58,948 bases of DNA, taken from positions 1 through 58,948 of IMG/VR virus record IMGVR_UViG_3300005512_000035; one strand, written 5' to 3'. The position numbers were made by a program, and so were the translations under genes. The DNA is from a virus (lineage: Duplodnaviria > Caudoviricetes). The notes below the pieces were generated by a model, which had not been told where the DNA came from, made no database searches, and worked only from the letters and a program-made list of their open reading frames with translations. Shown piece after piece: positions 21,135 to 27,293 of this stretch (position 1 is its first letter; every line of letters begins with the position of its first letter).

Positions 21135-22034
21135 ATGATGAATACCGAAGCCGTAGAAAGTTTCTTCGGGTGGATTAACGAACGTCATGCAATTTATCAG
21201 CGCAGGGCGGCGGGATCACCGCCGCCTTGGACTGCTGATAAAATACTGCGGGACTACAAGTTTACAAACCCCTTCCGCGAGAACGACAGGGTAACTGTTT
21301 GGATGCGGGAGAACTGGACTAAGCCACACAATAACCGTCCCCACGGTGAGATTATTTTCAACTGTTGTTTATTCCGTATGATTGGCACAAGTGAGTTTGC
21401 TGATGTACATGGTTGGGTAGAAGAGTTTAACCCTGAGTACACCAAGTTTATTATTGAGGAACGCCTGAAGAATAAACAGCGGACATTCACGGGTGCGTAC
21501 ATCATTACCAACCAAGGGTTGAAAGCACGGAAGTCGGAAGTAGTCGTTGACCATTTTCTTACGCCAATCTGGAAAGACCAAGAAAAACTGGCGCAGGTTG
21601 CCGCCGACACGAACTCGCTCCAAGCCGTACACGAAGCGATGGCTACCTATAGGGGATGGGGAGGCGGAGGCTTTATGTCATACGAAGTGGTTACCGACCT
21701 CAACTACACGCCTGTACTACACGAGGCAAATGACCGTTTTAGTTGGGCAAATGCCGGACCAGGAGCAGTCAGGGGATTAAACCGTATCCACTTGCGTGAC
21801 CTTAATAAAGGACTAAACAACAAACAGTCCAACTTGGAGATGCAGGCTTTATTGGTGGTTGCACCAGATTACCTTGCGAGCCATGTTCCCGAAGACCAAG
21901 TTGATATGCGTACCATTGAGCATAGCCTATGTGAGTGGGACAAATACCAACGAGTGCTGTTAGGACAAGGTAAGCCTAGGAGCAAATACGATCAATTGAA
22001 GAGTAGTCGCTTTAGTGGCGGCAGTGTAAACTAA
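21135..22034 (+). CDS. 5-hmdU DNA kinase-like protein (aGPT-Pplase clade 1)
   Basis: ERHAIY.RR..G.PPPWT.D.IL..YKFTNPFRE.DRVT, FTGAYI, GGFMSYEVVTDL, AGPGA.RGL, EH.LCEWDKY. Confidence 0.8.
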   Translation: MMNTEAVESFFGWINERHAIYQRRAAGSPPPWTADKILRDYKFTNPFRENDRVTVWMRENWTKPHNNRPHGEIIFNCCLFRMIGTSEFADVHGWVEEFNPEYTKFIIEERLKNKQRTFTGAYIITNQGLKARKSEVVVDHFLTPIWKDQEKLAQVAADTNSLQAVHEAMATYRGWGGGGFMSYEVVTDLNYTPVLHEANDRFSWANAGPGAVRGLNRIHLRDLNKGLNNKQSNLEMQALLVVAPDYLASHVPEDQVDMRTIEHSLCEWDKYQRVLLGQGKPRSKYDQLKSSRFSGGSVN

Positions 22035-22057
22035 CTGAAAAGGAAAAGGGGCGTAGA

Positions 22058-24831: not shown

Positions 24832-26748
24832 ATGCAGATGCCCCTATTCCAACCCCCGACTGAATGGGTAATGCCAGATGGCTACCCTGACTTGTCCGGT
24901 GCTAAAGAAGTTGCTATAGATTTAGAGACTAAAGACCCCAACCTCACCACGATGGGCAGTGGTTGGGCAAGAAAAGATGGACACATTATTGGGATTGCAG
25001 TCGCAGTAGAAGGTGAACAGTGGTACTTCCCCATTCGTCACGAGCTTGGTCCGAACTTAGATCCCAAGATGACGTTGAGGTGGTTACAGGATGTTTGCAC
25101 GGTTGAGCGTAATTATGTGTTCCATAACGCTCCTTACGATGTTGGGTGGTTGCTCGCTGAAGGTGTGCGGATACATGGAAGAATCGTGGACACAATGGTC
25201 GCCGCACCGTTGCTCGACGAGAACCGATTCAGCTATGCGCTAAACTCACTTGGCCGAGATTACCTGCAAGACAGGAAAAGCGAAGTAGAGTTACGCGCCG
25301 CCGCAGATGCGTTTGGTGTCAATGCCAAGAGCGAGATGTACAAACTTCCCGCCCATCATGTAGGAAAGTATGCAGAGCAGGATGCCGCGCTGACCCTACG
25401 CCTGTGGAAACATTTCCAAACCCTAATTATTAAGGAAGACATTCAGGACATTTTTGACCTGGAGCTCAAGGTACTCAAAACAATTATTCCTATGCGTGAG
25501 CGTGGAGTGCGTGTAGACCTAGAGCGTACCGAAATGATTAAGCGTGACCTAGAACAACGCGAGAAAAAACTGCTCGACCTCATCGGTAAACAAACAGGTG
25601 TAGACGTTGAGATCTGGGCGGCGGAAAGTGTAGCCAAAGCATTTGATGCACTGAAACTGCCATACAACAAAACAGAGAGGACCAACGCACCATCGTTCAC
25701 CAAGGGCTTCCTTGCTAATCACCCACACGAAGTACCGCAGATGATTGTACAGGCTCGTGAGTTTAACAAGGCGCGGTCAACCTTTGTGGACACAATACTC
25801 AAGCACCAGATCAATGGACGTATCCACGCGGAACTGCACCCACTCCGCAGTGATGATGGCGGCACAGTCACAGGCCGATTTAGCTACAGCAACCCGAACC
25901 TGCAACAGATTCCGGCACGGCACGGCGAAATCGGACCAATGATACGCAGTTTATTTATACCGGAAGAAGGGGCTCTATGGGGCGCGTTCGACTACTCTAG
26001 CCAAGAACCCCGTATTGTGGTGCATTACGCCAAGCTGATGGGCTTCAGAGGCGCGGCAGAGTTTGCAGACCAATACAACCTAGACGCCCGTACTGACTTC
26101 CACCAAATGGCGGCAGATATCGTTGGCGTCCCGCGTAAGCAAGCAAAGGACATCAACCTTGGACTGTTCTACGGTATGGGGTCTAAAAAGTTGGCGGCAA
26201 GCCTTGGCCTTGAGTTTGAAGATGCCCAAGAACTCTTCGCCACATATCACGATAAAGTCCCATTCGTACGAGAGTTAAGTGAGTACGCAACTAATCGTGC
26301 GAGCCGTAAAGGTATCATCCGAACCCTTCTTGGTAGAAGGTGCAGGTTTGACAAATGGGAGCCGAATGCTTATGGTTCATGGAAACCCATGACGTACCAA
26401 GAAGCGTACAACGAACATGGTCCTGCTATCAAGCGGGCATTCACATATAAGGCACTCAATAAACTGATTCAGGGTAGTGCCGCCGACCAAACAAAAGCCG
26501 CGATGGTGGCTTTAGCGGAGGAAGGAATACTACCCATGATTCAGGTGCATGATGAGTTAGATATCTCCGTAGAAAGTGAGGAACAAGCCAAGCGTATCGC
26601 GGAGATTATGGAGACTTGCGTCGACTTACAAGTTCCCTCCGTGGTTGATGCAGAGTTTGGACCAAACTGGGGGGAGGCAAAACAAACATTTACGGAGAAA
26701 CCATGGACAAGAGGACTGAACCACAACCACAGCGAAATGCAGACATAA
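24832..26748 (+). CDS. polA: DNA polymerase family A with 3'-5' exonuclease
   Basis: DLET and HNAPYD (exonuclease), TGRFS, PNLQQIP, DYSSQEPR (motif A), KDINLGLFYG (motif B), VHDEL (motif C). Confidence 0.95.
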   Translation: MQMPLFQPPTEWVMPDGYPDLSGAKEVAIDLETKDPNLTTMGSGWARKDGHIIGIAVAVEGEQWYFPIRHELGPNLDPKMTLRWLQDVCTVERNYVFHNAPYDVGWLLAEGVRIHGRIVDTMVAAPLLDENRFSYALNSLGRDYLQDRKSEVELRAAADAFGVNAKSEMYKLPAHHVGKYAEQDAALTLRLWKHFQTLIIKEDIQDIFDLELKVLKTIIPMRERGVRVDLERTEMIKRDLEQREKKLLDLIGKQTGVDVEIWAAESVAKAFDALKLPYNKTERTNAPSFTKGFLANHPHEVPQMIVQAREFNKARSTFVDTILKHQINGRIHAELHPLRSDDGGTVTGRFSYSNPNLQQIPARHGEIGPMIRSLFIPEEGALWGAFDYSSQEPRIVVHYAKLMGFRGAAEFADQYNLDARTDFHQMAADIVGVPRKQAKDINLGLFYGMGSKKLAASLGLEFEDAQELFATYHDKVPFVRELSEYATNRASRKGIIRTLLGRRCRFDKWEPNAYGSWKPMTYQEAYNEHGPAIKRAFTYKALNKLIQGSAADQTKAAMVALAEEGILPMIQVHDELDISVESEEQAKRIAEIMETCVDLQVPSVVDAEFGPNWGEAKQTFTEKPWTRGLNHNHSEMQT

Positions 26749-27293
26749 AGAAACTGCATGAGCGGTTGCGCGGCGGACATGTCATGCGCTACCACACTCG
26801 GCCAGAGTTGGCAGACGGGCAGAACGTCGCGGCGCACACTTGGCGGGCAATGGTGATATTAGACACGCTTTGGCCTGACAGTAGTCGTAACGCCATGCGT
26901 TACATGCTGTATCACGACGTAGCGGAAGCTGAGCTCGGCGATATGCCTGCCACGACAAAGTGGGGATACCCCGCTATCAACGCAGAAATGATCAAAGCTG
27001 AGCAAGAATACGAAGAAAAAATCGGTGTAAAGACTCAAGTGTACGAGAAAGAACACGCGATGTGTGACATTAGTGATAAACTAGAGCTTGTACTGCACTG
27101 TTATCGGCTAATGCAACAGGGTAACGGTCTTGCAGAGGACGTATTCTACAAAGGAGTGAACTATTTAAGACAGAAATATTCACAGAACCCTGTGTTTCTA
27201 CCCGCTAAAGGAGTTTTAGATGAACTTACTACCAAAAAGAATCAAAAACCCGAGCATATATCATCCATACTACGACGCCTTTGTCACGTGTGA
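26703..27293 (+). CDS. HD-domain 5'-deoxynucleotidase (YfbR-like)
   Basis: RYHT...NVAAHTW...YHDVAE...GDMP...DKLE. Confidence 0.8.
   Translation: MDKRTEPQPQRNADIKKLHERLRGGHVMRYHTRPELADGQNVAAHTWRAMVILDTLWPDSSRNAMRYMLYHDVAEAELGDMPATTKWGYPAINAEMIKAEQEYEEKIGVKTQVYEKEHAMCDISDKLELVLHCYRLMQQGNGLAEDVFYKGVNYLRQKYSQNPVFLPAKGVLDELTTKKNQKPEHISSILRRLCHV

Follow-up and report, generated by a model that had tools for sequence, protein, structure and literature searches.

The marine phage genome IMGVR_UViG_3300005512_000035 (58,948 bp; complete, with a CheckV rating of 100%), which we analysed over its full length and refer to as the window, raises the question of how a phage might attach a sugar to thymine in its DNA with no kinase to prepare the base. 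To our knowledge, the thymine hypermodification pathways reconstituted so far all use a 5-hydroxymethyl-deoxyuridine (5-hmdU) DNA kinase together with a clade-2 transferase. The cassette in question, at positions 21135-27293, is a contiguous, co-directional run of genes that includes those for an all-helical protein of the PF18723 family, a GT-B glycosyltransferase (GT), a thymidylate synthase (TS) homologue, a family A DNA polymerase (PolA) and an HD-domain nucleotidase. A preliminary description, made from the letters of the DNA alone, had taken this run for a thymine hypermodification cassette in which a 5-hmdU kinase and a GT act together, yielding either a sugar-phosphate base or a glycosylated, base-J-like 5-hydroxymethyluracil (hmU). 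Our analysis upholds the gene run, the calls for its GT, TS homologue, PolA and HD protein, and the reading as a hypermodification cassette with a likely glycosylated product; it discards the kinase step and the sugar-phosphate product, because no kinase was found. We propose, with a probability of about 0.6, that glycosylated hmU is made directly on DNA by the GT acting with the helical protein, with no phosphorylation step.

The 299-amino-acid (aa) open reading frame (ORF) that heads the cassette had been called 5-hmdU DNA kinase-like. We found that its sole Pfam match is PF18723 (HMUDK_hel), for which the cut-off is 25 bits, and that the protein is 34% identical to PaMx11 gp50, with no such likeness to the P-loop kinase gp49. 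It is gp49, a 189-aa P-loop protein, that experiment has defined as the PaMx11 kinase (Table 1, PMC8989533); the PF18723 protein is the product of the next gene, gp50. Homologues of the 299-aa protein in GenBank carry the label aGPT-Pplase1, a clade name that stems from Iyer et al. 2013, as cited in the available text of PMC8989533, and the SN1 genome note treats aGPT-Pplase1 and the adjoining 'nucleotide kinase' as separate genes (PMC9476957). The AF2 model of the window protein (pLDDT 91.5) contains 14 helices and no strand as long as three residues, and the ORF lacks a Walker A motif. The kinase-like label must therefore be withdrawn: what is present is the helical domain only, a homologue of gp50 and not of gp49. 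Among the aGPT-Pplase clades against which the preliminary description had proposed a search, clade 1 (PF18723) is matched and clade 2 (PF18724) is not.

Comparison of this model with BFVD gave 9 matches at E<=0.001. These include helical-domain proteins of phiRSL1 (TMq 0.85) and PhiW-14, two 'Pplase1' proteins, the 637-aa SP10 5-hmdU DNA kinase (TMq 0.74, TMt 0.37, so that only part of the SP10 protein is covered) and one protein with an amino acid:DNA transferase (ADDT) domain (E 1.5e-4, TMq 0.51). Against the PDB, nothing significant emerged from the fold search (best E 1.7) or from the sequence search, in which EndoIII and AGOG appeared at low probability only. In a 21-sequence alignment, C266-E267 is invariant (21/21 homologues) and E262 is not. 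A weak hhalign match (E 0.052, probability 1%) lays the window stretch IEHSLCEW over VETILCKW of PaMx11 gp46, putting E262...C266 of the helical protein on E243...C247 of gp46/PUGT, the residues whose mutants are described in PMC11472151. Because of the ADDT-domain fold match and the weak motif alignment, we regard the helical protein as a distant paralogue and structural relative of the amino acid:DNA transferases that appears to have kept their Glu...Cys motif.

If the helical protein is not the kinase, one might be encoded elsewhere. We found that PF18748 (P-loop kinase) is absent from the whole genome at E<=10. The Walker A pattern occurs at six places over the six frames of the genome, and the two that fall inside called ORFs lie in the UvrD helicase and in an Ala/Thr-rich stretch of a 205-aa ORF of the structural module (45380-45997). 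Thirteen kinase-domain queries, taken from 12 natural kinase-PF18723 fusions and from PaMx11 gp49, gave no match in the window at E<=0.1; as a positive control, one of them recovered PaMx11 gp49 at 8.8e-12. In the 80 related loci described below, the same queries gave one marginal match (E 0.097), within the span of a UvrD homologue. PF18724 (ADDT) was absent from a six-frame search of the whole genome at E<=10; a control, PaMx11 gp46, scores 97.1 bits against this family. Pfam scans of 82 window ORFs showed no kinase, ADDT, pyridoxal-phosphate (PLP) enzyme, radical S-adenosylmethionine (SAM) enzyme, FAD enzyme, deoxynucleoside monophosphate (dNMP) kinase or dCMP deaminase. A TET/JBP query found no match in the window better than E 0.65, and the Pfam scans contained no Tet_JBP. 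The preliminary description had likewise recognised no amino acid:DNA transferase, decarboxylase, radical SAM gene, dNMP kinase or dCMP deaminase, and these absences stand; nor does an amino acid:DNA transferase turn up elsewhere in the genome.

The TS homologue matches phrog_5131 (E 6.9e-105), is 40% identical to PaMx11 gp51 and lies far under every NCBIfam TS equivalog cut-off. In the available text of PMC13326640, which uses ThyA numbering, C146 is catalytic, N177 sets the base (Asn for dUMP, Asp for dCMP), L143 sets the product (bulky hydrophobic for methyl, acidic for hydroxymethyl) and D169 is replaced by Asn in 5-hydroxy-dCMP synthases. The window residues at the C146, L143, D169 and N177 positions, read from alignments to bacterial TS (4h0r) and MilA, are C154, D151, D177 and N186. 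All four, with the Asp at the L143 position three residues before the Cys, are invariant in 69/69 sequences: those of the window and PaMx11 gp51 and of 67 out of 68 TS loci, the remaining locus having been dropped because its ORF ran off the contig. The pattern is that of a putative uracil-specific dUMP hydroxymethylase. Identification of the protein as a 5-hydroxy-dCMP synthase or a dCMP hydroxymethylase was considered and rejected on the strength of these residues.

The gene between the helical and TS genes encodes a protein whose AF2 model (pLDDT 91.6) has a clear GT-B fold, with two Rossmann-like domains and an interdomain cleft. Foldseek returned 327 PDB matches at E<=0.001, led by HepE (5.2e-13), PimA and BshA, all GT4 enzymes; T4 alpha-glucosyltransferase (1y6f) ranked sixth, at E 2e-11, TMq 0.61 and 11% identity. 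Judged by its model, the window GT is as close to the T4 enzyme as to any cellular GT4 enzyme, and it is predicted to be of the retaining type. Many of its homologues carry precomputed PF00534 or PF13692. The family forms a discrete group and is essentially viral. A scan of 1.84 billion cluster representatives found 414 members at E<=0.001 and 177 at E<=1e-30, a word-indexed protein search found 219 homologues, and relatives occur on 225 viral contigs in IMG/VR. With one genome searched for each of 185,579 species, the family was seen on only 2 contigs, both of metagenome-assembled genomes, and tblastn against 50,697 GenBank phage records gave no match.

We then carried out on viral contigs the co-occurrence survey that the preliminary description had proposed, using tblastn at 1e-4 on the best 80 of the 225 IMG/VR stretches that bear the GT. 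The GT is accompanied by the TS homologue in 68/80 loci and by the helical protein in 63/80. The 125-aa protein of the cassette and PolA are found in 58 each, the HD protein in 53 and the 196-aa protein encoded upstream in 33; PaMx11 ADDT gp46 and kinase gp49 were each found in 0/80. Four gene orders occur: helical-GT-TS; GT-helical-TS; helical-125-aa-GT-TS; and an arrangement with the GT about 6 kb off.

Twelve loci contain neither the TS homologue nor the helical protein, and in 10 of these a TET/JBP dioxygenase gene lies directly upstream of the GT. The dioxygenase of one such locus, L078, matches PF12851 (E 3.6e-26), and a cytidylyltransferase-like gene lies between it and the GT. In the other two, one contig ends at that spot and L065 has two radical-SAM genes. 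The TET/JBP-linked GT relatives are 34-36% identical to the window GT. Five TET/JBP records, one of which is at least 90% complete, contain no C5-methylase and no PF18723; the missing methylase fits dioxygenase action on T, and the published view is that such phage dioxygenases act on T (PMC13229309). Because either the TS homologue or TET/JBP adjoins it, the GT follows two unrelated sources of 5-hydroxymethylpyrimidine. As a separate observation, L065 presents a third GT context: at 4960-9359, a GT relative (36% identity) is preceded by one radical-SAM-like gene and one gene for a B12-binding radical-SAM protein, and the locus has neither a TS homologue nor TET/JBP.

Some carriers also encode a possible source of the sugar donor. 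A nucleotidyltransferase of 133-141 aa resembling RfaE domain II (88 bits, below the 181.5 cut-off) is present in 21 TS-type loci, in the fusion locus described next and in at least one TET/JBP locus (L078). In the phages that carry it, this gene points to a possible heptose or polyol-phosphate donor activated by the phage itself. No such gene was found in the window, so its sugar donor would be supplied by the host.

The closest link between the GT and the helical protein is a natural fusion of the two. In P0203 (829 aa), the GT profile is matched over residues 9-450 (E 9.8e-77) and PF18723 over residues 510-790 (288 bits). Its 90% cluster has a second member, P0284 (837 aa), of other source, whose ORF has no internal stop. 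This ORF occurs on two IMG/VR contigs (51 and 108 kb), identical over a fetched span of 16.5 kb, and on one more contig, of other source. A Lys/Glu-rich linker connects the GT and helical parts, which are 30% and 26% identical, respectively, to the window proteins, and the Cys-Glu motif is retained. The word-indexed search for longer GT relatives had yielded no fused form of at least 754 aa; the fusion surfaced in the full HMMER scan. The fusion gene is flanked by an RfaE-like nucleotidyltransferase gene on one side and a TS homologue on the other; the locus yielded no kinase. The helical domain is also fused to kinases in 12 of 15 longer PF18723 relatives (11 with a thymidylate-kinase-like domain and 1 with PF18748), in addition to the SP10 kinase. 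The other long relatives (P0121, P0123, P0132) comprise two with PF18722, one of them also with MazG, and one of 644 aa with a family A polymerase domain. Taken together, the GT-helical and kinase-helical fusions argue that the helical domain partners the CH2OH-modifying enzyme, be it a kinase or a GT.

The genome itself carries a signature in which T stands out. We found that 60/67 CCGG sites in the window have a 5' T or a 3' A (expected 0.43; binomial p 2e-15), as do 41/44 CCWGG sites (expected 0.43; binomial p 2.5e-12). CCGG is moreover depleted, with 67 sites observed against 176 expected under a Markov model. Among 68 palindromic words with at least 15 sites each, CCGG, CCNGG and CCWGG are the three most flank-biased; the seven CCGG exceptions lie at 872-920 and 52.7-56.5 kb. 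The same bias accompanies the GT in other loci: the T-flanked share of CCWGG sites is 231/232 for L002-L046, 270/296 for TS-type loci at greater distance, 81/101 for loci of the TET/JBP type and 12/12 for the fusion locus. A share of at least 90% is reached in 50 of the 66 loci that have five or more CCWGG sites. Phages without the GT showed no CCWGG flank bias (HTVC027P 35/67, DSL-LC04 58/169, PaMx11 73/160). According to the available text of Flodman et al. (PMC6449724), TG and TC are the main contexts of modification in M6, ViI and PhiW-14, and sites made of G and C only may gain protection from a flanking T. The simplest reading of the bias is that CCGG and CCWGG sites next to a T in TC context are shielded by a bulky derivative of that T.

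Two further observations concern restriction words in these genomes. GCWGC has 0 sites in the 58.9-kb window, compared with 102 in HTVC027P and 189 in DSL-LC04 (per ~50 kb); among the relatives, L030 has 1, L034 has 0 and the others have 9-69. Evidently, a flanking T does not rescue this word. Separately, the TET/JBP-type loci L071-L076 and L078-L081 contain zero CCGG in 108 kb.

We therefore suggest the following pathway. The TS homologue would make 5-hydroxymethyl-dUMP, which host kinases would raise to the triphosphate and phage PolA would insert into DNA as hmU where T would otherwise stand. A contribution to dTMP depletion is the probable role of the HD 5'-deoxynucleotidase; removal of dTTP and dTMP had been proposed earlier for the cassette hydrolases, and for the HD protein this is a plausible function. 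Once the DNA has been replicated, the GT-B enzyme would move a sugar from a host nucleoside diphosphate (NDP)-sugar onto the 5-CH2OH of hmU in DNA. The predicted product is a base-J-like glycosyl-oxymethyl-uracil, with an alpha linkage if the likeness to GT4 enzymes and T4 alpha-glucosyltransferase holds. The PF18723 protein would work with the GT, most likely as an hmU-DNA docking or base-presenting module; in SP10, PaMx11 and M6-type phages, the same module would be the one that is fused or adjacent to a P-loop kinase. Restriction sites nearby would be shielded by the bulk of the T derivative.

Several points weigh against this proposal. Every step past gene content is one that we infer. The window GT scores under the Pfam gathering cut-offs for GT1/GT4 (26.5 vs 27, 23.7 vs 26.4 and 22.3 vs 28.5). 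The residue at the L143 position of the TS homologue, which should set the product, is K150 in the HMMER TS alignment and D151 in the MilA alignment, neither of which is hydrophobic. The Cys-Glu motif that the helical protein appears to share with the amino acid:DNA transferases suggests catalysis by it over mere docking, and the TET/JBP-linked GT relatives, which occur without a helical protein, imply that the GT may work without it. The flank bias could reflect shared host restriction systems of unusual specificity. Finally, the 80 loci are mutually related and many are cut by contig ends, so that the counts are not independent events.

Among the other explanations, the one that survives best, itself unlikely, takes the Cys-Glu motif at face value. 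Here the clade-1 helical protein would be a Cys-dependent transferase that attacks C6 of hmU and, without earlier phosphorylation, adds a linker or small nucleophile to the C5 methylene, and the GT would then glycosylate the added group, as in the linker-plus-sugar thymines of SP-15, YerA41 and Carin-5. The invariance of C266-E267, its alignment with the gp46/PUGT motif (mutants in PMC11472151 and PMC8989533) and the ADDT-domain fold match speak for such an activity, and glycosylated linker-thymines are known (PMC12686479). The motif alignment, however, is the weak one noted above, the known transferases require 5-phosphomethyl-dU (PMC8989533) and no activating kinase is present to make it. 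In addition, the clade-1 protein of M6 (gp55, by our own assignment) is dispensable for the M6 intermediate in lysates, and no linker-synthesis genes were seen among the 82 ORFs scanned.

We consider it improbable that the GT acts away from DNA, its acceptor being a small molecule, a virion protein or a glycan of the host envelope, with the TS homologue merely supplying thymidylate or hmU. The top fold matches of the GT are indeed cellular GT4 enzymes with lipid and small-molecule acceptors, and about 65% of GT contigs have no base-modification neighbour in the available text of Pyle et al. (bioRxiv 10.1101/2023.12.21.572611). This family, however, is tightly linked to the TS homologue or TET/JBP in 78/80 loci, is fused to a helical domain of the hmU pathway, sits in the window inside the replication module, and comes with a T-flank restriction signature specific to its carriers.

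The model of the preliminary description, in which the 299-aa protein phosphorylates hmU in DNA and the GT displaces or extends the phosphate to give a sugar-phosphate base, draws on the Pfam name of PF18723 and could find an NDP-sugar or CDP-glycerol donor through the RfaE-/TagD-like nucleotidyltransferase of relatives; it is very hard to reconcile with an all-helical protein that has no P-loop and is homologous to gp50 instead of kinase gp49, with a genome in which no kinase was detected, and with a GT that resembles Leloir GT4 enzymes, not phosphotransferases. Just as doubtful is a modified cytosine (glycosyl-5hmC or -5hoC, as in T-even phages, RB69 and DLP3) made through action of the TS homologue on dCMP: TS homologues with such activities exist and pair with GTs (available text of PMC13326640), and the best PDB sequence match of the window protein is the CMP hydroxymethylase MilA (E 5.3e-14), but Asn and not Asp stands at the N177 position and Asp and not Asn at D169 in 69/69, the PaMx11 TS homologue to which it is 40% identical belongs to a phage whose DNA has hmU-derived bases (PMC8989533), and the flank signature concerns T, not C.

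Direct glycosylation of hmU in this one phage could be part of a broader pattern, which we put forward tentatively and at somewhat less than even odds: that a widespread marine and estuarine phage group carries a kinase-less, alpha-linked analogue of base J, that PF18723 is a general hmU-presenting module which plugs into either a kinase or a GT, and that modified T in TC context has visibly reshaped these genomes by shielding adjoining CCGG and CCWGG. The sugar, on this broader proposal, would be heptose or another phage-activated sugar in the relatives that have the RfaE-like nucleotidyltransferase.

The cassette lies in a phage of the HTVC023P-type lineage, as judged from its large terminase, which is 64% identical to that of Pelagibacter phage HTVC027P, 63% to that of phage 023Pt_psg01 and 56% to that of HTVC023P. 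Its G+C content is ~48%, compared with 35% for HTVC027P. Near-identical contigs of one marine DNA sequencing run span the whole stretch. Contigs of three RNA-library runs match short pieces only, and since these may be DNA carry-over we make no claim of transcription. The genes between the UvrD-type helicase and PolA form a co-directional block (Table 1). In DSL-LC04, a related phage with no cassette, the helicase gene adjoins PolA directly, and in HTVC027P only three small ORFs separate the two; because these phages lack the block, we regard 19068-24832, from the 88-aa ORF to the Cys-rich ORF, as an insertion in the replication module.

Table 1. Features of the cassette region of the window, followed by the RfaE-like genes of related loci.
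Feature	Coordinates	Strand	Remarks
UvrD-type helicase	17551-19068
88-aa ORF			First gene of block, between UvrD-type helicase and DUF932 gene
DUF932/TIGR03299 protein	19433-20461
196-aa protein, no known family	20541-21131	+	Directly upstream of PF18723 gene
PF18723 HMUDK_hel / aGPT-Pplase clade-1 all-helical protein, 299 aa	21135-22034	+	174.6 bits
GT-B (GT4-like, predicted retaining-type) glycosyltransferase, candidate hmU DNA GT, 430 aa	22058-23350	+	AF2 fold, Foldseek
TS homologue with dUMP hydroxymethylase signature (putative), 323 aa	23391-24362	+	PF00303 71.3 bits
125-aa conserved protein, no known family	24362-24739	+	ATG overlaps TS stop by one base (TAATG)
65-aa Cys-rich ORF	24666-24863		Between 125-aa gene and PolA
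Family A DNA polymerase with 3'-5' exonuclease domain	24832-26748	+	PF00476 209.5 bits, PF01612 42.7 bits
HD-domain YfbR-like 5'-deoxynucleotidase	26703-27293	+	PF12917 32.3 bits, PF13023 29.6 bits
T4 endonuclease V-like pyrimidine-dimer DNA glycosylase	27913-28434		PF03013 28.9 bits; just 3' of cassette
RfaE-like nucleotidyltransferase, L002	11453-11851
RfaE-like nucleotidyltransferase, L078	7574-7999
RfaE-like nucleotidyltransferase, L086	6612-6998

The 125-aa gene had been described as a MazG-like hydrolase (24332-24739), an assignment that finds no backing: no search detected a MazG family match, neither for the window protein nor at E<=1 for 18 homologues, for which a PDB profile search was also empty. 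No family is assigned to it in Pfam, PHROGs or NCBIfam; its nearest Atlas clusters are viral hypotheticals, one of them with DUF1599 on 11% of members. The ORF list starts this gene at a TTG at 24332, and an alternative ATG lies at 24362. In L054-L062, the gene is directly upstream of the GT. The 196-aa protein likewise has no family in Pfam, PHROGs or NCBIfam; its best Atlas score, 0.78, is uninformative, and its homologues keep the same position in the loci that have it. It was considered as the missing P-loop kinase and rejected, having no similarity to PaMx11 gp49 and no Walker A motif. Three smaller observations concern neighbouring genes. A CxC...CxC pattern in the 65-aa ORF suggests a zinc ribbon; the PF03013 DNA glycosylase is conserved just downstream of the cassette in 37/80 loci; and one of 36 ORFs in a bulk Pfam scan matches the HlyC toxin-activating acyltransferase family (E 1.4e-10).

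If direct glycosylation of hmU is borne out, it would constitute a second, simpler branch of thymine hypermodification, would give the clade-1/HMUDK helical family its first functional partner, and would place a base-J-like nucleotide in abundant marine phages related to the HTVC023P type, with a bearing on DNA sequencing and cloning. The T-flank rule for CCGG and CCWGG would provide a cheap, sequence-only marker of such modified genomes, and the cassette enzymes could serve as hmU-labelling tools for DNA. Parts of the picture are already in print: co-location of the genes in the available text of PMC9599517, and association of GT-B with ThyS in that of bioRxiv 2023.12.21.572611. In the literature, supplements aside, we found no paper that names a glycosyl-hmU product, the missing kinase, the GT-helical fusion or the flank signature.

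Comparison with known systems places the cassette among the thymine-modifying clusters of PaMx11, M6, ViI, PhiW-14 and SP10 (PMC5889632, PMC8989533), with which it shares a core of a TS-family dUMP hydroxymethylase, PF18723, HD nucleotidase and PolA. In PaMx11 the gene order is partly the same, and the window proteins are 40%, 34%, 31% and 40% identical to gp51, gp50, gp52 and gp55, respectively. Unlike these clusters, the window has no P-loop 5-hmdU DNA kinase, no clade-2 transferase and no PLP, radical SAM, FAD or acetyltransferase tailoring enzymes, and it has a GT-B gene between the helical and TS genes. The 'DNA hypermodification partner-AMGs' of HTVC023P-type pelagiphages (mSystems 2022, PMC9599517) come from the same phage lineage. 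In the available text of that paper, TS and aG/PT-PPlase1 lie close to PolA and are 'sometimes colocated with' genes for a putative glucosyltransferase and a 5'-deoxynucleotidase; it offers annotation and trees with no product or mechanism, and the kinase it mentions is histidine kinase.

Sugars are also found on a thymine derivative in SP-15, YerA41 and Carin-5, with GT genes near the DNA polymerase (PMC12686479, PMC13697223). Those phages, however, are large myoviruses, and their pentyl-type linker, phosphate, UDG-fused polymerase and several sugar-tailoring genes have no counterpart in the window. The GT clusters linked to 5mYOX (TET/JBP) that are described in the available text of Pyle et al. 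resemble our TET/JBP-type loci, in which GT relatives likewise follow the dioxygenase. L078 in particular resembles their 'contig 53', which combines a cytidylyltransferase and a GT-B enzyme and puts heptose on 5hmC, and GT-B matches stand beside ThyS in ~28% of their contigs (bioRxiv 10.1101/2023.12.21.572611). The window differs in having a TS homologue in place of a dioxygenase, and the products given there are on 5hmC.

The T4 alpha- and beta-glucosyltransferases, which act on 5-hmC DNA, offer a parallel in logic: a hydroxymethylpyrimidine is likewise made before replication and then O-glycosylated directly by a GT-B enzyme. The differences are a sequence identity of 11%, a predicted base of hmU and not hmC, and the helical partner protein of the window. 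In kind of product, a counterpart is base J of kinetoplastids (JBP1/2 and JGT), in which, as predicted for the window, a sugar sits on the hydroxymethyl group of hmU in DNA. The routes would differ: for base J, T is oxidised in DNA, and in the window hmU is predicted to be made before replication. JGT is grouped with GT-A enzymes, whereas the window GT is of the GT-B fold and is predicted to form an alpha, not a beta, linkage.

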